Positions 2,480 to 57,212 of a DNA stretch of 64,000 nucleotides are shown in pieces. A model generated the notes under the pieces. It was not told where the DNA came from, did not search any database, and saw nothing but the letters and a program-made list of their open reading frames with translations. Location of the stretch: positions 52,540 through 116,539 of the forward strand of contig JAFRBX010000076.1 of NCBI GenBank assembly GCA_017404665.1, given 5' to 3'. The DNA is from Ruminococcus sp. Lineage in GTDB: Bacteria > Bacillota > Clostridia > Oscillospirales > Acutalibacteraceae. Position 1 is the stretch's first letter, and every line of letters starts with the position of its first letter. A program made the position numbers and the translations under genes.

Positions 2480-3808
2480 TCAGATATTGATACCGATCTT
2501 TTTACGGTTGTCGATCACTCGGACAGCCTTGCCTTCGCTGCGGGTGATGGACTTGGGAGCGACGAGGCGGATCGTGGGATTGATGCCCAGCATTTCCTTC
2601 ATCGCCGACTGGATCTTCTTCTCTTTCTTTGTGATGACCTTCGGCGTGTCGGAGAAGTCCTCAGGCAGCATCTCGACCTGGATCTCAAAGGTATCGGTGT
2701 TGTTGACACGGTCGACAAGGATCAGATAGTTCGGCGCATAGCCGAGGTTCAGCAGAACAGCTTCGATCTGGCTCGGGAATACGTTGACGCCGCGGATGAT
2801 CATCATGTCGTCGCTCCGTCCCATCGGCTTCTTCATCTTGATGAAGGTTCTGCCGCAGGAGCACTTCTCGCGGGTGAGAATTGTGATATCACGGGTGCGG
2901 TAACGCAGCAGCGGGAAGGCTTCCTTATCGAGAGAGGTGAAGACCAGCTCGCCCTTTGAGCCTTCGGGCAGTACCTCGCCGGTATCGGGATCGATGATCT
3001 CAGCGTAGAAATGGTCCTCGTTGATGTGCATACCGGTCTGTTCTTCACATTCAAAGGATACGCCGGGACCGCTGGTTTCGGTCAGTCCGTAGATGTCATA
3101 CGCCTTAATGCCGAGGGATTTCTCGATATCCCTGCGCATTTCCTCTGTCCAAGGCTCCGCGCCGAAGATGCCCGCCTTGAGCTTGTTATCCTCCGGCTTG
3201 TAGCCCTTTTCCTTCAGGCTTTCGCCGATATAGGCGGCGTAGGAGGGAGTGCAGCAGAGGATGGTAGCATTCAGATCCATCATGAACTGGATCTGGCGGT
3301 TGGTGTTGCCGCTGGACATCGGAAGCGTCAGGCTGCCGACTTTATGAGAGCCGCCGTTGAGTCCCGGACCGCCGGTGAACAGACCGTAGCCGTAGCAGAC
3401 CTGTACGACGTCCTCGTTGCTGCCGCCCGCGGCGACGATCGCTCTGGCACAGCATTCCTCCCACATATCGATATCGTTCTGGGTATAGAACGCGACGACA
3501 CGTTTGCCGGTTGTGCCGGAGGTGGACTGGATGCGGACGCAGTTTTTGAGGTCGGTTGCGAGCATGCCGTAGGGATACGCTTCTCTCAGATCATCCTTAG
3601 TGAGGAAGGGCAGCTTGCTGATGTCGCTCAAACAGGTGATATCCTCGGGCTTGACGCCTCTTTCATCCATCAGGTCACGATAGTATTTGACATTGTCATA
3701 CACATACTTGACCTGCTTGATGAGCTTTTCTTCCTGCAGCTTTTTGATGTCTTCCACCTGCATCGTTTCCGCTTCGGGCTGATAATAGTTTTTCTGCATT
3801 TTTTTCAT
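2480..3808 (-). CDS. paaK: Phenylacetate-CoA ligase
   Basis: STSGTTGK P-loop, YGYGLFTGG, DIYGLTE, LLRYRTRD, GRSDDMMIIRGVNVFPSQIE. Confidence 0.9.
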   Translation of the reverse strand: MKKMQKNYYQPEAETMQVEDIKKLQEEKLIKQVKYVYDNVKYYRDLMDERGVKPEDITCLSDISKLPFLTKDDLREAYPYGMLATDLKNCVRIQSTSGTTGKRVVAFYTQNDIDMWEECCARAIVAAGGSNEDVVQVCYGYGLFTGGPGLNGGSHKVGSLTLPMSSGNTNRQIQFMMDLNATILCCTPSYAAYIGESLKEKGYKPEDNKLKAGIFGAEPWTEEMRRDIEKSLGIKAYDIYGLTETSGPGVSFECEEQTGMHINEDHFYAEIIDPDTGEVLPEGSKGELVFTSLDKEAFPLLRYRTRDITILTREKCSCGRTFIKMKKPMGRSDDMMIIRGVNVFPSQIEAVLLNLGYAPNYLILVDRVNNTDTFEIQVEMLPEDFSDTPKVITKKEKKIQSAMKEMLGINPTIRLVAPKSITRSEGKAVRVIDNRKKIGINI

Positions 3809-6259: not shown

Positions 6260-7561
6260 TTATTCGTTTCTTAAATCGACAATGCGCTTTGCTTTGCCTT
6301 GGAATCTTTCCAGTGTCTTAGGCGCAACCAAAGTTACTTTTGTTCTCAGACCGAGGATCGACTGCAGCTTCGCTTCGATGCTCTTCTTCAAGCCGTCGAG
6401 CATCTGATAGTTTTCGAGCAGCGCTTCGTTGATGACCTCGACCTTGATCTCTAAGCTGTCGCGGTAATTCTGACGGGTGATATACAGCATATAATGCGGC
6501 GCGATATCGGGGATGTTGATCAGGATGTTCTCGATCTGGGTAGGGAAGACATTGACGCCCTTGATGATCAGCATATCGTCGGTTCTGCCCATGGTCTTTG
6601 CCATTCTGCAGTGCGTTCTGCCGCAGGAGCAGGGCTGGTAGCTGAGCTTGGTGATATCCTTGGTGCGGTAACGGAGCACCGGCATGCCCCTGCGGGTCAG
6701 GGTGGTGACGACCAGCTCGCCGATCTCGCCTTCGCCCAGACGCTCACCGGTATCGGTGTTGATGATCTCAGGCAGGAAATGATCCTCGGCAAAGTGCATG
6801 CCGTCGCGCGCTTCACAGTCGCCGGAAACACCGGGACCGCCGAGCTCGGTCATGCCGTAGTTGTCGGATACGCGGATGTTGAAATTGCGCTCGATCTGTT
6901 CGCGCATGGACACAGTGCAGGGCTCGGAGCCTAAGATGCCCAGCCGCAGGCTGTAGTCAGAAAGCGGATAGCCTGCTTCTTTCACTGCCTCCGAGAGATA
7001 CAGCGCGTAGGAGGGAGTCGCGACCATGCCGGTTACGCCCCAGTCGCGCAGCATCATCAGCTGCTTTGGGGTGTTGCCCGAAGAAGCGGGGATGACGGTC
7101 GCGCCGAGCTTTTCCATACCGTAGTGCAGACCCAGAGCGCCGGTGAACAGACCGTAGCCGAAGCTGATCTGAATGATATCGTCGGGGGTAACGCCGCCCG
7201 CGCACGCGACTCGCGCCACACAGTCGGACCAGATATCGAGGTCTTCCTTGGTATATACGCCGGTGGTGGGTTTGCCGGTGGTGCCGGAGGAGGCGTGGAT
7301 ACGCACGATGTCCTTCATGTCGGCAGCCATCAGACCGAAGGGATAATTATCCCTGAAATCATCCTTCGTGGTGAAGGGGATATATTGGATGTCGGATAAT
7401 TCCTTGATCTTGGAGCCGTCGAGCACGCCGCAGTCCGTCAGACGCTGATGGTAGAGCGGTACGTTGTCATAGCAGTACTTGACCACCCATTTCAGCCTTT
7501 CGAGCTGGATCGCCTCGATTTCTTTTCTGGGCAGAGTTTCAATGTCTTTTTGAAAAATCAT
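6260..7561 (-). CDS. paaK: Phenylacetate-CoA ligase, second paralogue
   Basis: HASSGTTGKP, FGYGLFTG, DNYGMTE, YRTKD, GRTDDMLIIKGVNVFP. Confidence 0.9.
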   Translation of the reverse strand: MIFQKDIETLPRKEIEAIQLERLKWVVKYCYDNVPLYHQRLTDCGVLDGSKIKELSDIQYIPFTTKDDFRDNYPFGLMAADMKDIVRIHASSGTTGKPTTGVYTKEDLDIWSDCVARVACAGGVTPDDIIQISFGYGLFTGALGLHYGMEKLGATVIPASSGNTPKQLMMLRDWGVTGMVATPSYALYLSEAVKEAGYPLSDYSLRLGILGSEPCTVSMREQIERNFNIRVSDNYGMTELGGPGVSGDCEARDGMHFAEDHFLPEIINTDTGERLGEGEIGELVVTTLTRRGMPVLRYRTKDITKLSYQPCSCGRTHCRMAKTMGRTDDMLIIKGVNVFPTQIENILINIPDIAPHYMLYITRQNYRDSLEIKVEVINEALLENYQMLDGLKKSIEAKLQSILGLRTKVTLVAPKTLERFQGKAKRIVDLRNE

Positions 7562-11384: not shown

Positions 11385-11436
11385 TTCTTGACTTAAGGTT
11401 ACGGAAGTTATAAAATAATGTTTGGAAGAATAATCG

Positions 11437-11480
11437 GTTGAGATTGCCGCGGAAAAAGACGCGCGCATCCTCGCAATGAC
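11437..11480 (-). repeat. REP-like palindrome, family A (GTCATTGCGA...GCGGCAATCTCAAC)
   Basis: Reverse complement reads GTCATTGCGAGGATGCGCGCGTC...CGCGGCAATCTCAAC. Confidence 0.8.
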
Positions 11481-11499
11481 GATTGATAAGGAGGCAACT

Positions 11500-12439: not shown

Positions 12440-14704
12440 ATGAAGCGGTTACTGGCACAGATTGGTATCACCTACTTTTCTGTGCTGGCGATCGCTTTTT
12501 ATTTGCAGGGATGGATCGTCATACTGGTCGGCGGTGTAGCGCTTCTGCTGACGGTATTATTCTTTATCCTGAAAAGAACGCGCAAAACTGTGTTCATTCC
12601 CGCCATGGCACTGACAGTCGTTATCGCGTGTGCCGTCAATATCGGCTATTCGGCGCTGTTCGTTCAGCCGGTCATTGATCGGTACGGTAATACGGAGCAT
12701 ACCGTGCGCGCGGTGATCACAGATGAAGAATACAAATCGTATTCCAAATACTATTACCGCTTGAAGGCTACCGAGATCGACGGCGAGAATGTCAGCATCA
12801 AGGTGCTGTTGAAAACGCCGCATATGCTGGATGCCGAGACTGATGATGTGCTGACCTTTACCTCTGTGCTGAAGGAAACAGAGAATAATTACTACCGTGC
12901 CAAGGGCTATTATCTTGTGTCTGACGACTATGATGCATATGTTGAGGAAGAGCCGGCATTCTCTCATACGCTTTATTATCGCGCGATACAGCTCAGGCGG
13001 TTGATGCGGCATACACTGGAATCCGTTCTCCCGTCCGACTGCGCCGCGCTTTGCAGAGCAGTATTAATCGGCGATAAGTACGCGCTGAGTCAAAACGTCA
13101 GAGATAATTTCCGCTATGCGGGAGCTTCCTATTTCATCGTGGTGTCCGGCATGCATTTCGCGGTGATATGCTTTCTGATACTGAAACTATTGAAGCGCGC
13201 AAAGTACATAAACCGCTGGGTACGGTTCGCGATAACCATGCTGTTTATCGTGCTGTATGCCGCTATCACCGGCTTTCAGCCGTCCGTCCTGCGCTCAGGC
13301 ATCATGATGGTGCTTTTGCTGCTGGGTGATACGATCCGCCGTCAAACGTATCCGCTGAATCACTTAGGGCTGGCAGGTATCATCATGCCCTTTATCGTAT
13401 CGCCTTACGGCGCGGGTGATATCGGGCTGATCCTGTCGTATTACGCGACCTTTGCAATCCTGCTGTGGGCGTCGCCGATCGCGCAGAAGCTGTACTTTAA
13501 GGATCGATACGGGAATATACTCGGATTCAACCTGAGCGCAAGGTGGAACGCGTTTACGGAACGCATCAAAGAGAAGCGGGATGGAGGCAAGCCGCGGAAG
13601 GATGACAACAAACAGCCTTTCACGGTGCGCGGTTTTTTATATAAGCTGTGGAACTGCGTCGCGTTGATGCTTTCTGTCAGTATCGCCGCGAATATCTTGG
13701 TGTTTCCGATCTCGGTATTTGTTTTCCGCGGGTTTTCATTAGTAACGCTGGTGTCTGCGCTGCTGCTGTACTGCGAAATCTATCTGATACTGATTTTCTC
13801 TTTTGTGATTTGTATCTTCTTCTGGTTCAAGCCGTTTATTGCGCTCTTAGCAGTTCCGCTGACATGGCTGTGCAGACTGGTGCTGTGGATCGTAGACGGT
13901 CTGGCTTCACTGCCGTTTGCGTACTGTCATGTGAGTCAGAGCTTTATTTTGGTATGGACGGCGGTGACGGTCGTTCTCGGTCTGATCGTGATCCTGTACC
14001 GCAACCATTACCGTTATCTGAAAACGGCGGCGTTATTCTCTGCCATCATCCTGCTGGCGGGTTGTCTGCTCCATGAAGTATTGCAGCTTCAGGTCCTTTC
14101 GCTGGAGGTGTACAATTGCGGCACCGGCGTCTGTGCCGGGATCAACAGCGGCGGTAATCTGCATTTGCTGAGCATGGACGCAAAATCAAAGGAGCTCTAT
14201 CCGATATGGTCCGATCTGTCCGAGCGCTACGGCGGCGCGGATACAGCACTGTGCAGCAGCGATAAAGATCTGCGCCGATACCGAATGTATCGCGATGATG
14301 AATTTGCAATTTCGACAATAATGCTGTATGATAAGTCTGACGATCATACAAATGAGGGCAATATCGTCGGCTTTGACGGTGATCGGACGTTCGTTCTGGA
14401 CGACGGGGTCATCATGGAGGTTTCCGTCGTCAACGATACCGTGGTTCCGTACATCACGGCGGGCGACAGAACGGTATTGGTGATCCCCGATGGCTGTACG
14501 ATTGAAGAGATACCCATCAAGCGCCGTCAGGCGGATGTGATTGTTCTCTCCGAAGCGTTCAGCGGGATGGAAGAGCTGCGGTGTGAATCGCTGATTCTCA
14601 GCACGGATGTTCCTACGGCGTTCCGGCTGGCTGATGCTATGAAAGACTGTTATCAACATGTGTATTTTACCGGTGAGGGCGATGTCCGCTGCCGGTTGAG
14701 GTGA
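12440..14704 (+). CDS. comEC: ComEC/Rec2 competence protein
   Basis: LIGDK, IVVSGMHF, GFQPSVLRSGIM, multiple TM helices, upstream of holA. Confidence 0.85.
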   Translation: MKRLLAQIGITYFSVLAIAFYLQGWIVILVGGVALLLTVLFFILKRTRKTVFIPAMALTVVIACAVNIGYSALFVQPVIDRYGNTEHTVRAVITDEEYKSYSKYYYRLKATEIDGENVSIKVLLKTPHMLDAETDDVLTFTSVLKETENNYYRAKGYYLVSDDYDAYVEEEPAFSHTLYYRAIQLRRLMRHTLESVLPSDCAALCRAVLIGDKYALSQNVRDNFRYAGASYFIVVSGMHFAVICFLILKLLKRAKYINRWVRFAITMLFIVLYAAITGFQPSVLRSGIMMVLLLLGDTIRRQTYPLNHLGLAGIIMPFIVSPYGAGDIGLILSYYATFAILLWASPIAQKLYFKDRYGNILGFNLSARWNAFTERIKEKRDGGKPRKDDNKQPFTVRGFLYKLWNCVALMLSVSIAANILVFPISVFVFRGFSLVTLVSALLLYCEIYLILIFSFVICIFFWFKPFIALLAVPLTWLCRLVLWIVDGLASLPFAYCHVSQSFILVWTAVTVVLGLIVILYRNHYRYLKTAALFSAIILLAGCLLHEVLQLQVLSLEVYNCGTGVCAGINSGGNLHLLSMDAKSKELYPIWSDLSERYGGADTALCSSDKDLRRYRMYRDDEFAISTIMLYDKSDDHTNEGNIVGFDGDRTFVLDDGVIMEVSVVNDTVVPYITAGDRTVLVIPDGCTIEEIPIKRRQADVIVLSEAFSGMEELRCESLILSTDVPTAFRLADAMKDCYQHVYFTGEGDVRCRLR

Positions 14705-14707
14705 TTT

Positions 14708-15754
14708 ATGTTTACGGAAAGCGAACTGAAGAAGCATTTGAATAGCGGACATTTCAGCAGCGTGTATCTTTGCTTCGGCGAAGAAAAGATGCTGGTGAAG
14801 CGTTCCGCTGAGCTGATCGAAAAGAAAATTACCGGCGGGGATATCAACGAGTTTAACTATCATGTGTTCGATAACGATTCACAGCTCTCGGATATTGCCT
14901 TTTGTGCCGATATGATACCGTTTATGGGTACATGGAATATCCTGCGCATCAACGATATGGATATTGACAAGTTGAAAAAGGATGATTGTGAAGCGCTGAT
15001 GAAGGTTCTTAAGAACGCTTCGGGACAGACCGTGATCATCATCGCAATGCCGACACTGGACGTCACATCTAAGACGGCTAAGGCGCAGATGAAGAAGCTG
15101 ATCGCCTTTGTCGATAAAAACGGCGTGTGTATCGAGCTGAGCCACCGCAGCGGATTGGCGCTGGAACGCGATCTGTGTAAGTGGGCAAAGGCGGGCGGAT
15201 GTACCATGAGTGAGCTGACGGCGCATCAGCTGATACAATTTGCGGGCGAGGATCTGAACCGTCTGAACGCTGAAATGAAGAAGCTGACTGCCTTCGCCGA
15301 CGGCGGTGAGATCACGCCGGAGATGATAGAGCTGCTGGTCTCAAAAACGGCTGAGGCAAGCGTATACGATCTGTTCGGCTTGATCGCGGAGGGGAAGATC
15401 GATAAAGCCCTATCAGCGATCGACACGCTGTTTTATCAGCAGATCAGCGGCGTCTATATCTGCACGGTGCTTTCAGGGGCGTATCTTGACGCGTACCGCG
15501 CGCGGGCAGGCGCAGAAGCGGGAAAGCCGACCGCCGTGATCGCGGAGGACTTCGGCTACAAAAACCGCAAGTGGGTGCTGGATAAGCTGTTACGGCAGAT
15601 CCGCCGTGTCACGACCACTGCACTGAGAAAAAGCATCGACGAGCTGCTCGAATTACAGACGCGCATGGTCACAGAGACAGTTGACGAACGCATGGAGATC
15701 GAGAGCCTGATATGCAGGCTTGTGCTGATCGCGGAGGATCGATCCGATGAATAA
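14708..15754 (+). CDS. holA: DNA polymerase III delta subunit
   Basis: VYLCFGEEK, FNYHVFD, EMKKL, SVYDL; comEC-holA synteny. Confidence 0.85.
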   Translation: MFTESELKKHLNSGHFSSVYLCFGEEKMLVKRSAELIEKKITGGDINEFNYHVFDNDSQLSDIAFCADMIPFMGTWNILRINDMDIDKLKKDDCEALMKVLKNASGQTVIIIAMPTLDVTSKTAKAQMKKLIAFVDKNGVCIELSHRSGLALERDLCKWAKAGGCTMSELTAHQLIQFAGEDLNRLNAEMKKLTAFADGGEITPEMIELLVSKTAEASVYDLFGLIAEGKIDKALSAIDTLFYQQISGVYICTVLSGAYLDAYRARAGAEAGKPTAVIAEDFGYKNRKWVLDKLLRQIRRVTTTALRKSIDELLELQTRMVTETVDERMEIESLICRLVLIAEDRSDE

Positions 15755-16601
15755 TAATAGTCATTGCGAGGAGCATAGGCTCCCTTTGGTAAAGGGAGCT
15801 GCTGAGCTAAGCGAAGCTGAGGGATTGCATGAATTGTCTGAGCATAAGCGAGTATCCAATTTGAAAATTGCATTAAAAGAAACCGTGATCGTTGAAGGCA
15901 GATATGACAGAATTAAACTCAGCGAGCTGATCGTAAGCCCGATCATCGAAACGGGCGGCTTTCGCGTGTTCAAGGATAAAGAAAAGCAGATTTTGATCCG
16001 CAAGATAGCGGAAAAGCGCGGGATACTGGTGATGACCGACATCGATTCGGCGGGCTTCGTGATCCGCAATTTCCTGCGCGGAATTGTGCCGGAGGATCGG
16101 ATCCTGCACGCGTATATCCCTACTGTGGAGGGAAAGGAGAAGCGCAAGCCTGAAACGTCTAAGGAAGGACTCCTCGGTGTGGAGGGGGTCGATCGTGAAG
16201 CACTGATCGAAGCGATCCTCAACAGCGGCGCGCATATCATAAATAGTCATTGCGAAGAGCAAAGGCTCCCTTTCCTAAGGGAGCTGTCTGCGCAGCAGAC
16301 TGAGGGTTCAGCGCGGCAATCTCAATCGCTTTCCAATAAAGACGTAGGGGAGGGACCTGCTCCTCCCGCAGCTGACGATGCGGATGTTCAAATAGAAGAA
16401 TCCTTTATCACAAAAACGGATTTCTTCGATTACGGTCTGACGGGACGCGAAAAATCCGCTGCGTATCGTGAAAAGGTGTTGGCTTCATTAGGCATGCCGC
16501 GATATCTGACGACCAACGCGATGATCGCCGCGATCAACTGTCTGTTTACCAAAGAAGAGTTTGAAAGCTTTCTGATACAACTGAATAAAGAAATAAAATA
16601 A
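15747..16601 (+). CDS. rnmV: Ribonuclease M5-like protein (Toprim + DUF4093) carrying REP-derived peptide segments
   Basis: VIVEGRYD, MTDIDSAGFVIR, GLLGVEG, ITKTDFFDYGLTG. GGAGG precedes ATG 15747; an alternative start is TTG 15861. Confidence 0.8.
   Translation: MNNNSHCEEHRLPLVKGAAELSEAEGLHELSEHKRVSNLKIALKETVIVEGRYDRIKLSELIVSPIIETGGFRVFKDKEKQILIRKIAEKRGILVMTDIDSAGFVIRNFLRGIVPEDRILHAYIPTVEGKEKRKPETSKEGLLGVEGVDREALIEAILNSGAHIINSHCEEQRLPFLRELSAQQTEGSARQSQSLSNKDVGEGPAPPAADDADVQIEESFITKTDFFDYGLTGREKSAAYREKVLASLGMPRYLTTNAMIAAINCLFTKEEFESFLIQLNKEIK
15760..15828 (+). repeat. REP family A left arm with nested family B
   Basis: GTCATTGCGAGGAGC-AT-AGGCTCCCTTTGGTAAAGGGAGCTG...CTGAGGGATTGC. Confidence 0.8.
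16246..16367 (+). repeat. Composite REP cluster inside the rnmV ORF (A with nested B, then a GTAG-type)
   Basis: GTCATTGCGAAG...[GGCTCCCTTTCCTAAGGGAGCTG...CTGAGGG]...GCGGCAATCTCAA, then GTAG-GGGAGG...CCTCCC at 16344-16367. Confidence 0.8.
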
Positions 16602-16631
16602 GGCTGTTCGCGTGTGTGCGTGAACAGCCTT
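16600..16631. terminator. Bidirectional terminator between rnmV and yebC
   Basis: AAGGCTGTTC...GAACAGCCTT. Confidence 0.7.
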
Positions 16632-16724
16632 TCTGCCAATATTATTAACCTTTTGTACGGTTGCAATTGCCGCGTGGCAGAACACGTGTGTTCGCCCTGC
16701 AATAACAATCATAATAAGAAAATC

Positions 16725-17459
16725 TTATTCAGCGTCTTCCCAGTTGTGCCATACATTCTGGATATCGTCGTTATCTTCGAACATATCCAGCATTTTCTGC
16801 ATCTGTACGCGTGTATCGGGATCGTCGATCTTAGTGTAGGTGGTGGGTACCTGTTCGACCTCGGCAGAGGCGAATTCATAGCCCTGCGCCTGCAGATCGT
16901 CGCGCACCGCACTGAAATCCTCGGGCTCTGTATAGACGGTGAAGATATCCTCGTCGGCTTCGAAATCGGACGCGCCTGCCTCCAGAGCGGCTTCCATAAC
17001 GGTGTCCTCGTCCTTTTCAAGATCCTCGCGCTCGATGATCAGAACGCCCTTTTTGTTGAACATGAAGCTGACGCAGCCGGGGGTGCCCATGTTGCCGCCG
17101 AACTTGTCAAAGTAATGTCTGACTTCGCCCGCGGTACGGTTGCGGTTGTCGGTCAGCGCTTCTACGATGACCGCGACGCCGCAGGGACCGTAGCCTTCAT
17201 AGGTGACAGCCTCATAGTCTGCGGTCTCGCCGCCCTGCGCCTTCTTGATGATGCGCTCGATGTTGTCGTTGGGAACGTTGGCGGCTTTCGCCTTGGCGAT
17301 GCAATCTCTGAGCTTAGAGTTAACGTTGGGGTCGGCGCTGCCGCCGTCGCGGATTGCGACCATCAGCTCTCTGCCGATTTTAGTGAATACCTTGGCGCGC
17401 GCGGCGTCATTCTTGCCCTTTTTCTGCTTGATGGTACTCCATTTATTATGTCCTGACAT
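16725..17459 (-). CDS. yebC: YebC/PmpR family protein
   Basis: [35 protein letters not shown]. Confidence 0.95.
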
Positions 17460-24083: not shown

Positions 24084-24093
24084 ACTTCCGATC

Positions 24094-24217
24094 GTCATTG
24101 CGAGGAGTCGGCACTAAAGCCGACGACGCGGCAATCCCCTTATCATTACGACCGGATGCGTTTTTTTGTGGGATTCCCACGGGGATTGTGAAAAATACCT
24201 TCCCCTCAAGGGGAAGG
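24094..24217 (+). repeat. REP family A copy plus partial opposing arm and a family B hairpin
   Basis: GTCATTGCGAGG...GCGGCAATCCCC (24094-24139); TTGTGGGATTCCCACGG matches an arm of the 37363 element; CCTTCCCC-TCAA-GGGGAAGG at 24198-24217. Confidence 0.7.
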
Positions 24218-30414: not shown

Positions 30415-30454
30415 ATTAATTCTATTAGTCATTTTGAGGGGCACAAAAGATAAG

Positions 30455-30527
30455 GTTGAGATTGCCGCGTCTGAACCATGTTCCTCCTCGCAATGACGAT
30501 CTGAAATGCGCCCGCGGCAATCTCAAC
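30455..30527. repeat. REP family A cluster (minus copy plus extra right arm)
   Basis: GTTGAGATTGCCGCG...CCTCGCAATGAC, then CGCGGCAATCTCAAC. Confidence 0.8.
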
Positions 30528-30656
30528 CGATAAAAAGGGTCAAATATCCCGCTGCTTGCATCGATAGAGCCCGCAGAGGAGGCGTTACTCACTTTGGCTG
30601 AAAATTTGTCTGTGATGCAGCGATGACGCTGCAAACCGCTCTCCTGCAAGAGGTGT

Positions 30657-35004: not shown

Positions 35005-35190
35005 GTTTGATTTCATATCATATAGTATTTATCCTCCGCCCAGCGAGCAGGGTTGTTGTCGATGTATTGGTATATTTCGCGGTAGTCGCGTTCAGATCGG
35101 ATAACACGATCATAAAAGCGCGGGTGCCAAACAGAATGACCGATACGTTTTGAGATCGTGCCTTTTAGTTGTTGGATAATACGCGATATC

Positions 35191-35213
35191 GTAGGGACGA
35201 GCATTGCTCGTCC
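35191..35213 (+). repeat. GTAG-type REP inside the RAYT ORF
   Basis: GTAG-GGACGAGC-ATT-GCTCGTCC. Confidence 0.8.
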
Positions 35214-35358
35214 GTCGTCGCAGTAAAGAAAAAGCAAAAGATGAATATGGTTGGGCATGATGACGAAGTTGTCTATATGAACCGATGGAGATACAATTTC
35301 AATGTTACGGATGGCGTCCTCTGTGATACGTCCGTATTTTGTCAATATGACATCAGGC

Positions 35359-35381
35359 GGACGACCGATGGTCGTCCCTAC
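35359..35381 (-). repeat. GTAG-type REP inside the RAYT ORF, inverted relative to the first
   Basis: Minus strand GTAG-GGACGACC-ATC-GGTCGTCC. Confidence 0.8.
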
Positions 35382-35502
35382 GGAAATCTTAGATAATAAC
35401 GGTTTCCTGTTCTTGGTACATATCGTGATAAAATACGCCCCATTTGAGTTGTAATCATACTCCGGCATCCGAATTTGCTTTCTTATCTTGTATTCGTTTT
35501 TA

Positions 35503-36216
35503 TTATCCATATATCTTCTCATATATCGTCGTGACCGCCTCGTCGGATATGGTACATCCCAGCCGATACATCGGGACGGTCTCCACCAGTCTGCCGAGCA
35601 TATCGAGCAGCTTTGACAGCTGCGCTTTGTCGGAGGGGAGAACGGTTTGCTGCAGGATCAGCGTCAGCGCTTCGATCGGCGTGACGGCTTTTGCTTTGTT
35701 CTCGGGCGCCTGCGAGAGGAAGACGATCGCTCTGACGGGCGCACAGGTGTTGCAGCCGATGCCGTGCTTGCCGTTCCACGGCGAGCCGTAGATGACGAAT
35801 CTGCCGTCCTTTTCGCGCACCAGCGGCTTGTCGTCGTTGATCATCACGACTTCATCCCCGAAGTGCTTGCGCCACAGGGACGCGTGGGTGCTCTTGCCTG
35901 TGCCCGAAGGCGCGGTGAAGATGATCGCCTCATCCCTGAATCTCAGGCACGAGCAGTGCAGGAAGAAGCCACCTCTGTCGATGATGTAATCGCAGATGAC
36001 GCGCAGGATGGCGACACACTCGCAGATGTACATACTGCTCTGATAACCGTGGATCTCTTCGCCCAGCTCCAGCTCATGACGTATCATTTCCTCCGTCGGC
36101 TCGATGTACAGCTCATATTCCTCGCTGTCGGTCAGATAATCCTGCATATAACGATAAGTTTCTTCATAGCGCGCCTGTACGGCGATATTCATTTCAGCGA
36201 TGCGATAGATGTTCAT
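35503..36216 (-). CDS. HPr-kinase-like P-loop protein (ScmC-like; type usually found with PqqD cassettes)
   Basis: FLHCSCL, FTAPSGTGKSTH, INDDKP, YGSPWNG, AIVFLSQ. Confidence 0.7.
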   Translation of the reverse strand: MNIYRIAEMNIAVQARYEETYRYMQDYLTDSEEYELYIEPTEEMIRHELELGEEIHGYQSSMYICECVAILRVICDYIIDRGGFFLHCSCLRFRDEAIIFTAPSGTGKSTHASLWRKHFGDEVVMINDDKPLVREKDGRFVIYGSPWNGKHGIGCNTCAPVRAIVFLSQAPENKAKAVTPIEALTLILQQTVLPSDKAQLSKLLDMLGRLVETVPMYRLGCTISDEAVTTIYEKIYG

Positions 36217-37362: not shown

Positions 37363-37469
37363 GTCATTCCGAGGCTCACTATGTGAGCCGTGGGAATCCC
37401 ACAAGGATGAGAAGAAACGTAGGATGATCGCTTTGTGGGATTACCACGGGCTAAAGCCCTCGCAATGAC
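37363..37469. repeat. REP family A inverted doublet
   Basis: GTCATTCCGAGG...CCGTGGGAATCCCACAA // TTGTGGGATTACCACGG...CTCGCAATGAC. Confidence 0.8.
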
Positions 37470-38574: not shown

Positions 38575-38721
38575 CTTTTTCTCCGTTAACTGTCACAATG
38601 ATACATCGGAATATGCTGATACTTCCATGTATATGAACCTTCTATTCGGATTATACTGAACTTGTCGGAAAAAGTCAATAATAACGCGCGCGTCCGGCGT
38701 GCCGGTTTTCTTTTACCGATA

Positions 38722-38770
38722 GTCATTGCGAAGCCCGAAAACGCGTTTTCGGGGCTGTGGCAATCACAAC
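38722..38770 (+). repeat. REP family A copy
   Basis: GTCATTGCGAAGCCCGAAAACGCGTTTTCGGGGCTGTGGCAATCACAAC. Confidence 0.8.
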
Positions 38771-38859
38771 TGATAAAACCGCACACGTCAATCTGATCCT
38801 GAAAAAGAAATGTAACACATATAACAAAGCAGTATTAATAATTCAAAAGAAACGTAAAG

Positions 38860-45970: not shown

Positions 45971-45980
45971 ATTAGTATTA

Positions 45981-46020
45981 GTCATTGCGCAGCCCTTTTT
46001 AGGGCTGCGGCAATCTCAAC
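45981..46020 (+). repeat. REP family A copy
   Basis: GTCATTGCGCAGCCCTTTTTAGGGCTGCGGCAATCTCAAC. Confidence 0.8.
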
Positions 46021-46099
46021 CGATTATATCGGAATCATTCTTCATATAAAATAGTATAGTTAACCATAATATGTCATCGTAAAGTCATGTCAAATTTCC

Positions 46100-51606: not shown

Positions 51607-51630
51607 AGAAGATGTGTTTTATTTCAAATA

Positions 51631-51692
51631 GCCATTGCGAAGCTCCTTGAACACGTGTGGAAAACGCGTTTTCGGGGCTGAGGCAATCTCAA
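51631..51692 (+). repeat. REP family A copy
   Basis: GCCATTGCGAAGC...GAAAACGCGTTTTCGGGGCTGAGGCAATCTCAA. Confidence 0.75.
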
Positions 51693-51725
51693 AAGATCTA
51701 TGGGTGTTTTACCTTTCGATTCAAC

Positions 51726-55242: not shown

Positions 55243-55262
55243 TGGAATATGTTATTTAAATA

Positions 55263-55325
55263 GTCATTGCGAAGCCCCTTGAACACGCGTGGAAAACCCG
55301 TTTTCAGGGTTGCGGCAATCTCAAC
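55263..55325 (+). repeat. REP family A copy
   Basis: GTCATTGCGAAGCCCC...GGGTTGCGGCAATCTCAAC. Confidence 0.8.
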
Positions 55326-55375
55326 CGATTCAATCAGGTTGAATCCTCGCCCGCAATGTACTGTAAGGAGTTTCT

Positions 55376-56403: not shown

Positions 56404-57000
56404 ATGATTTGTAAACAATGTGGCAACGAAGTTCCCAATGATGCAAAGTTCTGCGGTGTTTGCGGCACACCCAACGAAGCATACGGCATGCCCGCGGAGC
56501 AGCCCGTGTACGCTCAGCCTGCAGACAACCAGTATGCTCAGCCTGCTGATAATCAGTATGCTCAGCCCGCTTACGGCCAGCCGCAGTATGCGCAGCCTGC
56601 CGAGCCCCAGTACAACCAGCCTCAGTATGGTCAGCAGTACGGTCAGCCGCAATACGGTCAGCCTGCATACAGCGCTCCCGCGGCTGAGGATCCCACAGAG
56701 CGCAGTCTTGCCAAATCCACGCTGATTTTCGGTATTCTCGGCATTGCGTTTCCCTGCACCTTCTACCTTGCATTCTTAGGTATTATTTTCGGCATTATCG
56801 CTATGAGTAAAGCGAAGAAGTATGTTGCATCCGGCTATGTTCTGACAGGTAAAGCCAAGGTAGGCAAAATCCTCGGTACCGTCGGCATGATTCTCGGCAT
56901 TGTTTTGACAGTCATCCTGGTCTTTATTATTATCGCTGCAATTGTTGCCGCTACCACTTCCAGTAATTACTACAGCAGTTACGGCGGCTATTATTATTGA
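56404..57000 (+). CDS. Zinc-ribbon + Q/P/Y-rich linker + DUF4190-like membrane protein
   Basis: CKQCG...FCGVCG, YAQPADNQ and QPQY repeats, two TM helices. Confidence 0.75.
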   Translation: MICKQCGNEVPNDAKFCGVCGTPNEAYGMPAEQPVYAQPADNQYAQPADNQYAQPAYGQPQYAQPAEPQYNQPQYGQQYGQPQYGQPAYSAPAAEDPTERSLAKSTLIFGILGIAFPCTFYLAFLGIIFGIIAMSKAKKYVASGYVLTGKAKVGKILGTVGMILGIVLTVILVFIIIAAIVAATTSSNYYSSYGGYYY

Positions 57001-57058: not shown

Positions 57059-57110
57059 GGCTCCCTTTGGTAAAGGGAGCTGTCACGGCATCAAGCCGTG
57101 ACTGAGGGAT
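57059..57110 (+). repeat. REP family B copy
   Basis: GGCTCCCTTTGGTAAAGGGAGCTG-TCACGGC ATCAA GCCGTGA-CTGAGGG; first 24 nt identical to the copy at 15779. Confidence 0.8.
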
Positions 57111-57212
57111 GGCATTATTTGTTTGACCGCAGGCAGTTCGAAGCCTGTATACTTTTGTTTCAACGTATAATCTCAACAAATCGACTTATCATAACAAAGG
57201 AGGCGCCTACAT

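Follow-up and report, generated by a model that had tools for sequence, protein, structure and literature searches.

Repetitive extragenic palindromes (REPs) were sorted by Di Nocera, De Gregorio and Rocco (2013; PMC3733652) into two superfamilies, GTAG-tagged and CGTC-tagged. CGTC-tagged REPs combine a CGTC (or TGTC/CCTC) tag with a stem of 8–9 bp, a loop of 4–5 nt and a CCA tail, and have no dedicated transposase beside them; the Rickettsia palindromic elements (RPEs) RPE-4 and RPE-6 were placed among them. The same study described many intragenic GTAG and CGTC units, with clusters encoding up to 43–82 residues, and argued that intragenic inserts occupy linkers and loops, and N-termini too, where they are often annotation errors. 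Firmicutes are absent from its text and from its five CGTC phyla. In-frame REPs as such are therefore already documented (Rickettsia RPEs; PMC3733652). The subject of the present study is a window of 64 kb from the genome of one rumen Ruminococcus (positions below are window coordinates) and, within it, rnmV, the gene for a homologue of RNase M5. Palindromic repeats stand at two sites in this gene, probably as the result of repeated in-frame insertion, with the frame kept by selection and the encoded peptides incidental.

Two repeat composites within rnmV

The rnmV reading frame extends from 15747 to 16601 (plus strand) and encodes 284 amino acids (aa) from its ancestral ATG, with a Toprim domain at about residues 40–164 and a DUF4093 domain at residues 217–284. 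The ATG overlaps the stop codon of holA (ATGAATAA) and is preceded, nine bases upstream and inside the end of holA, by the Shine–Dalgarno sequence GGAGGA (15733–15738, plus strand); the initial annotation had described a GGAGG and an overlap with the end of holA.

The linker between the two domains contains members of three repeat families, here called A (CGTC-type), B and GTAG REP. On the plus strand, as are all parts of both composites, it runs from a family-A 5' arm (16242–16262), through a family-B core nested in the family-A loop (16263–16308), to a family-A 3' arm (16309–16328; CAGCGCGGCAATCTCAATCG). After a short spacer follows a G+C-rich, GTAG-tagged REP hairpin (16343–16368; CGTAGGGGAGGGACCTGCTCCTCCCG), read as VGEGPAPP. 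This is the order that had been proposed initially. At the N-terminal site, a family-A 5' arm (15756–15776; AATAGTCATTGCGAGGAGCAT), read as NSHCEEH, is joined to the long form of family B (15777–15857), read as RLPLVKGAAELSEAEGLHELSEHKRVS, which consists of a core of two hairpins (15777–15827) and a tail (15828–15857). The earlier description of this copy as an in-frame A/B repeat holds, except that it has no clear family-A 3' arm. The two sites share a 40-nt direct repeat (15756–15795 versus 16242–16281) that is 88% identical.

Each composite is free of stop codons in only one of the three sense frames, which is the frame used, and both peptides are as first read. In the absence of selection, two inserts would be expected to preserve the frame and remain free of stops in about 1% of cases. 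Translation has to pass through the linker composite, while for the N-terminal copy it is uncertain; the claim of two repeat peptides in one protein stands for the linker, with doubt attached to the N-terminus.

Three small, non-autonomous palindromic repeat families (A, B and the GTAG REP) populate the genome of this host and its closest relatives. In the explanation preferred here, copies have inserted repeatedly at two permissive rnmV sites, one behind the start codon and the other in the linker between the Toprim and C-terminal domains. Selection on RNase M5 would then retain only those versions that have a length divisible by three and are free of stops in the frame used. The linker of the enzyme would consequently be longer by about 46 residues, which are probably disordered, and its N-terminus possibly by about 36.

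Linker expansion among related genomes

Linker length was taken as the number of residues between the motifs SGAxI and ITKxDF, and was compared across 80 orthologous loci from species-representative genomes (L001–L080). All are Ruminococcus-like assemblies from gut and rumen, one of an isolate and 79 of them metagenome-assembled genomes; even the best match reaches only 66% identity. The linker has 67 aa in the window versus 21–22 aa in L007 and L013–L080, where the site is empty. Alignment with orthologues, which had been suggested as a check, bears out the insertions: where the repeat DNA is absent, some 46 residues of the linker and some 36 at the N-terminus have no counterpart, in line with the initial prediction.

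Repeat-built long linkers are limited to the closest relatives (within L001–L011), and the genomes that have them carry repeats elsewhere too. Repeat patterns are essentially confined to the window, L001–L006, L009, L011 and L018, with only scattered single matches elsewhere. Linkers of 34–42 aa with no recognisable element are found in L008, L010 and L012. Where elements are present, their combination differs: a GTAG REP alone (L002, L004 and L005), a family-A remnant with a GTAG REP (L001), two tandem A units with B (L003), A with B (L006), long B alone (L009), or two GTAG REPs with a composite of B nested in A, written A(B) (L011). The A(B) arrangement of the window is also seen in L011, P0050 and P0019, and the orthologous linker GTAG REP is shared by L001, L002, L004, L005, L011 and L081–L083.

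Differences extend to the level of strains. Over 3.4 kb, loci L081 (protein P0006) and L082 (P0010, which also represents L083) share 98.8% identity, yet one of them is longer in the linker by a net 54 nt. This difference is one in-frame family-A unit, read as INSHCEGVSLWQSQPKSEDN, directly 5' of the GTAG REP. Because strains this similar differ by a 54-nt in-frame A element, the insertion into the linker is recent. The view of the linker as a site of repeated nested insertion is supported by content that differs from species to species and by the presence or absence of a unit between strains.

The enzyme has kept its catalytic residues, with Toprim E50, D98 and D100 (the Glu and the DxD motif) invariant across 80 homologues. 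A homologue search with the rnmV product found 3553 sequences, the best 120 of which (at least 55% identity) span 197–266 aa. Its best sequence match is the Toprim domain of RNase M5 (PDB 6tg6/6tpq), and its best fold matches are the RNase M5 entries 6z2b, 6tg6 and 6tpq, with a TM-score of 0.74 (6z2b/6tg6). DUF4093 (Pfam PF13331) is matched at residues 217–275 (E = 2.7e-15), over profile positions 27–85 only. The NCBIfam model TIGR00334 (ribonuclease M5) scores 48.8 bits, below its cut-off of 110.65, and aligns with the Toprim part alone (residues 43–162); the protein belongs to a divergent clostridial branch, and the insert interrupts the model. Judged from its sequence, the protein would function in 5S maturation. 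In the AlphaFold model, both domains have high confidence and most of residues 1–36 and 169–216 have a pLDDT below 50, and the inserted stretches are predicted to be disordered.

Probable DNA elements rather than peptide modules

Over the first hairpin of family B, six species share a 24-nt stretch at 100% identity, be it read in frame or out of frame; at third codon positions of the adjacent Toprim domain, identity to the window is only 53–62%. Similarly, family-A ends are identical across species and, among the matches listed, in more than 120 metagenome contigs with G+C contents of 34–61%. Since the sequence is kept regardless of frame and across genomes, the conservation belongs to the element and not to the peptide. 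This frame-independent conservation, together with the predicted disorder of the inserts, makes the repeat peptides look like by-products of DNA elements, not evolved protein modules, and they may well be neutral.

The distribution of copies is of the same kind. In about 190 kb from element-carrying genomes, all other copies found lie in intergenic spacers, often with one just 3' of rnmV. The lone pair within a coding sequence in this sample is of a different GTAG sequence type and forms a conserved part of a RAYT-like gene. The initial annotation had gone further and proposed a peptide-creating repeat system. That part of its reading is not sustained, given the intergenic position of the other copies, conservation independent of frame, predicted disorder, and an N-terminal copy that is perhaps untranslated.

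Coding insertions outside rnmV were seen in two metagenome contigs. At 1143–1180 of L110, a family-A unit lies in frame in a DegT/DnrJ/EryC1 aminotransferase (CHCEERSDVAISTN; Pfam 1e-72) with about 34 extra residues. The minus strand of L128 has a 622-aa membrane open reading frame with several in-frame SHCEE units and no Pfam match. Searches with the 45-aa linker peptide were uninformative, yielding no candidate in a word-indexed database and one chance match, to a HEAT-repeat protein, in a representative library.

The family-A core TGTCATTGCGAGGAGCGAAGCGACGTGGCAATCTCAACC (38 nt) recurs letter for letter in at least 120 metagenome contigs, an unusually strong conservation for a 'selfish' repeat; these include L084–L163, and window copies such as that at 45974–46027 belong here too. 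Its exact recurrence in contigs of 34–61% G+C hints at recognition by a conserved cellular or mobile protein, a possibility that is given a low probability. A phage origin of family A was dropped, as no copy of the core occurs in 2.9 million viral contigs.

Start codon use and alternative explanations

The junction ...CGGAGGATCGnTCCGATG, in which the ribosome-binding site and ATG overlie the holA stop, is common to all orthologous loci. Because every orthologue shares it, translation began ancestrally at ATG 15747, and the N-terminal element follows codon 3 of the original coding sequence. A long-B element is found in frame at the same rnmV site in L001, L204 and L205. In L003, L004, L005 and L009, the same N-terminal element has a different second hairpin that breaks the frame, and the ancestral ATG opens only a 3- or 16-codon reading frame ending inside the repeat. 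In these four loci (the region is at about 5905–6000 in L003) a new ATG, with no obvious Shine–Dalgarno sequence, stands directly 3' of the repeat, which looks like a shift of the start codon caused by the insertion.

A similar start might be used in the window. An alternative in-frame TTG (15861–15863, plus strand) lies directly 3' of the N-terminal element, one codon downstream of the position of the sister species' ATG, and the public gene call for this sequence begins there (P0001, 246 aa). Were translation to start at this TTG, the N-terminal composite would be a 5' leader or intergenic sequence, and the protein would have one repeat peptide, not two. The chance of this is put a little below even. 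The out-of-frame or stop-bearing elements of L003, L004, L005 and L009, with their new ATG behind, fit such a start, as does the frequency of annotation artefacts among N-terminal 'intragenic' REPs (PMC3733652). Moreover, the element begins 9–10 nt past the ATG, where a hairpin could hinder initiation. However, a clear Shine–Dalgarno sequence is lacking at the TTG, while a strong GGAGGA stands before ATG 15747 at 9-nt spacing, and the overlap of this ATG with the holA stop suggests translational coupling. The N-terminal composite is, furthermore, open in one frame of three, namely the one used. At least part of the element must also be translated in L204 and L001, because L204 has no ATG, GTG or TTG between the element and the first Toprim strand and L001 has a lone GTG, inside that strand. 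For the window protein, production of the full N-terminal extension is about an even bet.

The broader reading, in which palindromes inserted repeatedly and selection kept the frame, has several points to set against it. The comparison of L081 with L082 shows neither a target-site duplication nor a clean empty/filled junction; 6 nt are replaced in the filled allele, and the insert is bordered by a small cluster of substitutions. Given these changes, the unit could have arrived through recombination or gene conversion instead of transposition. We know of no enzyme for families A and B (the flanks of family-A copies were screened for long open reading frames only). The coding copies in rnmV fold no better than shuffled sequences (z = -1.6 and -0.4), and translation through either composite would follow from the open frame and the conservation of the domains. 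The ratio of coding to intergenic copies is that of a sample, namely 64 kb of the host genome and related loci picked around rnmV, and is therefore biased. Lastly, although their content turns over, long linkers persist in all of the closest relatives but L007 (21 aa), so that they may bring some benefit. It may be that the repeat-derived linker has been co-opted, its greater flexible length tuning the way in which the two RNase M5 domains bind the ribosome-borne 5S precursor, or that the repeats act as hairpins in the processing, stability or translation of the holA-rnmV mRNA. Repeats at the holA-rnmV junction and directly 3' of rnmV in several species, and nucleotide conservation beyond neutral expectation, would agree with this. 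Yet intergenic and unrelated metagenome copies are equally conserved, making this a property of the element, not of rnmV. In addition, linker length and content vary widely (34–67 aa), one species is polymorphic for one unit, the linker inserts are predicted to be disordered and about 70 other Ruminococcus species manage with 21–22 aa, so that co-option is judged improbable. Equally unlikely is a related idea, that the rnmV junction and linker are preferred landing or recombination sites for CGTC- and GTAG-type repeats, with hairpins or linker length setting RNase M5 expression or ribosome reach. A far smaller chance still attaches to an assembly artefact with misplaced repeats, or to rnmV being a pseudogene. 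Repeats are a known cause of misassembly, and the exact window protein is recorded from one contig only. However, insert-bearing orthologues were assembled independently in different projects (8 contigs for P0004, 4 for P0035 and 31 for P0036). The frame is also free of stops and frameshifts, no catalytic residue varies, and the models of both domains are confident. Both readings were rejected on the open frame, the catalytic residues and these many independent assemblies, and the low chance that both inserts would keep frame and stay open without selection also argues against them.

Architecture and copies of the repeat families

The family-A layout is (A/C/T)GTC-ATTGC-GA(A/G)G, an inner stem-loop, and G(T/C)G-GCAAT-CTCAACC. 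Its outer ATTGC/GCAAT pairs, bulge and tail are constant, while the inner stem varies from copy to copy and pairs every time (GGAAC/GTTCC, GCCC/GGGC, GGTGAC/GTCACC and others). The stem thus has 5 bp, then a bulge and purine–purine mismatches, then the variable inner stem, and loops range from 3 to more than 40 nt when elements nest. Tags consist of C, T or A followed by GTC, with TGTC dominant in metagenome copies and AGTC in both rnmV copies. The 3' tail is a conserved CTC then AACC, and the two ends form an inverted repeat that is imperfect. Family B, often nested in family A, has two hairpins and the layout AGGCTCCCTTT..TAAAGGGAGCTG, a second variable hairpin, and CTGAGGGATTG; the long form has a further 30-nt tail.

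The 17-nt family-A head has seven matches in the window versus 0.43 expected. There are about 11 family-A copies in the window, nine of them intergenic when a degenerate copy directly 3' of rnmV (16659–16710, minus strand) is counted. Intergenic copies are found at 11430–11487 (minus strand), 24093–24136 and 38715–38777 (both plus strand). Another of them, at 45974–46027 (plus strand), folds at -22 kcal/mol (z = -5). A further one has a long inner stem (51624–51700, plus strand) and is 87% identical to that at 55256–55332 (plus strand), likewise intergenic. An inverted pair of family-A variants (GTCATTCCGAGG... / ...CCTCGCAATGAC), to which no strand was assigned, is located at 37363–37469, and a family-B core copy at 57059–57113 (plus strand); both are intergenic. 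In other genomes, family-A copies are also located 3' of rnmV in L002, L004, L005, L006, L009 and L018.

An intergenic composite at 30421–30534 (plus strand) has an inverted family-A copy in the loop of a family-A copy. The same type of composite is present at 279–393 of L002 and at 6650–6895 of L018. Its occurrence at unrelated sites of three species suggests that a composite can spread as one unit.

Rfam has no match to the elements, whether gathering scores or E <= 1 are applied. A sub-threshold match to FuFi-1 RNA (Rfam) at 16598–16764 (minus strand; 29.6 bits versus a gathering score of 59.6, E = 0.016) sits in the spacer between rnmV and the yebC-type gene, over the degenerate family-A copy, and is probably noise. 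A literature search with the repeat sequence returned only coincidental primer matches.

A RAYT-like gene and GTAG REPs

A RAYT-like gene of the Y1 (IS200-type) transposase kind is located at 35013–35522 (minus strand), 19 kb from the rnmV REP. Its product has the HUH motif MPNHIHLL and matches Pfam Y1_Tnp with E = 6e-4, below the cut-off; some of its 1408 homologues are named transposase or RayT. The gene is not bordered by REPs but has two inverted GTAG hairpins within its own frame, at 35190–35214 and 35358–35382. These encode SVGTTIGRPP and DGRAMLVPT, one type of palindrome translated once in each direction. Homologues with as little as 50% identity retain both motifs (V, G, R, P and G, R, P, T invariant), and the stems of the hairpins differ from that of the rnmV REP. 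The window has only one GTAG REP besides that at 16343–16368, and orthologous and intergenic copies occur in related loci. The RAYT-like transposase is a candidate mobiliser of the GTAG REPs.

Neighbouring genes and other repeats

The genes preceding rnmV are comEC (12440–14704) and holA (14708–15754), and a yebC-type gene (16725–17459, minus strand) is convergent with it. The order comEC, holA, rnmV and yebC type is also found on one related contig.

Elsewhere in the window, positions 1–1150 contain coding tandem repeats of 375/750 nt, rich in Pro-Asp-Pro-Thr-Glu codons, and positions 56508–56675 contain five 24-nt coding units reading YAQPADNQ. Both sets are probably repeats of surface or secreted proteins. 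Segments 2744–3498 and 6512–7266 are 71–73% identical at a constant spacing of 3768 nt. They lie in two minus-strand open reading frames (442 and 462 aa), which look like a paralogous gene pair.

Implications

This locus offers a datable example of selfish palindromes lengthening the linker of a protein: close relatives, and even strains, still show it empty, with a single unit, with tandem units or with nested ones. Gut Firmicutes are thereby added to the hosts of CGTC-type and GTAG-type REPs and of their in-frame insertion. The locus also calls for caution in annotation: clostridial proteins owe peptides such as SHCEE...RQSQP, PPFPKGGGAERRRV and VGEGLAPP to repeats, next to which the choice of start codon is unreliable. 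The understanding of RNase M5 and of REPs is unchanged.

Comparison with known systems

The GTAG REP/RAYT systems (REPtrons and REPINs) resemble the present one in their GTAG tag and G+C-rich hairpin, as seen at 16343–16368, and in the presence of a RAYT-like Y1 gene in the window. In the classical arrangement, REPs flank the RAYT gene, whereas here the hairpins are within the RAYT coding sequence and encode conserved residues.

Coxiella burnetii MITEs (miniature transposable elements with inverted repeats) are reportedly inserted in frame in genes. PMC5896051 ties these small, non-autonomous repeats to protein evolution. They differ from the elements of rnmV in being longer, of the terminal-inverted-repeat type, and in belonging to another phylum.

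With the CGTC-tagged REPs, family A shares an unpaired (C/T)GTC tag, a stem whose first pairs are A-T and T-A, and the occasional intragenic unit. Back-translation of the CGTC-3 peptides VIAGLDPAIH and MAGPSPAMT gives GTCATTGC...GCAATC ends, the same as those of family A (read as VIAR...AIST and LLAMT). Family A differs in its longer, interrupted stem, in its common AGTC tags (a variant not listed for CGTC REPs) and in nesting within the loop. Its short unpaired tail is CTC-AACC instead of CCA; the A-T start of the stem is that of CGTC REPs.

The initial comparison with the Rickettsia RPEs was apt, given that these ends match CGTC-3 and that RPE-4 and RPE-6 belong to the CGTC superfamily. Like the RPEs (PMC3733652), the rnmV elements are in-frame palindromes in a conserved housekeeping protein, more than one per protein and at the N-terminus, with function apparently kept. 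Family A has the tag-plus-hairpin design of the CGTC superfamily and is linked to the RPEs via the CGTC classification only (PMC3733652). In contrast to Rickettsia, an alphaproteobacterium confined to life inside cells, the host is a gut Firmicute that lives freely, and the other sampled copies are intergenic, with rnmV as the exception.

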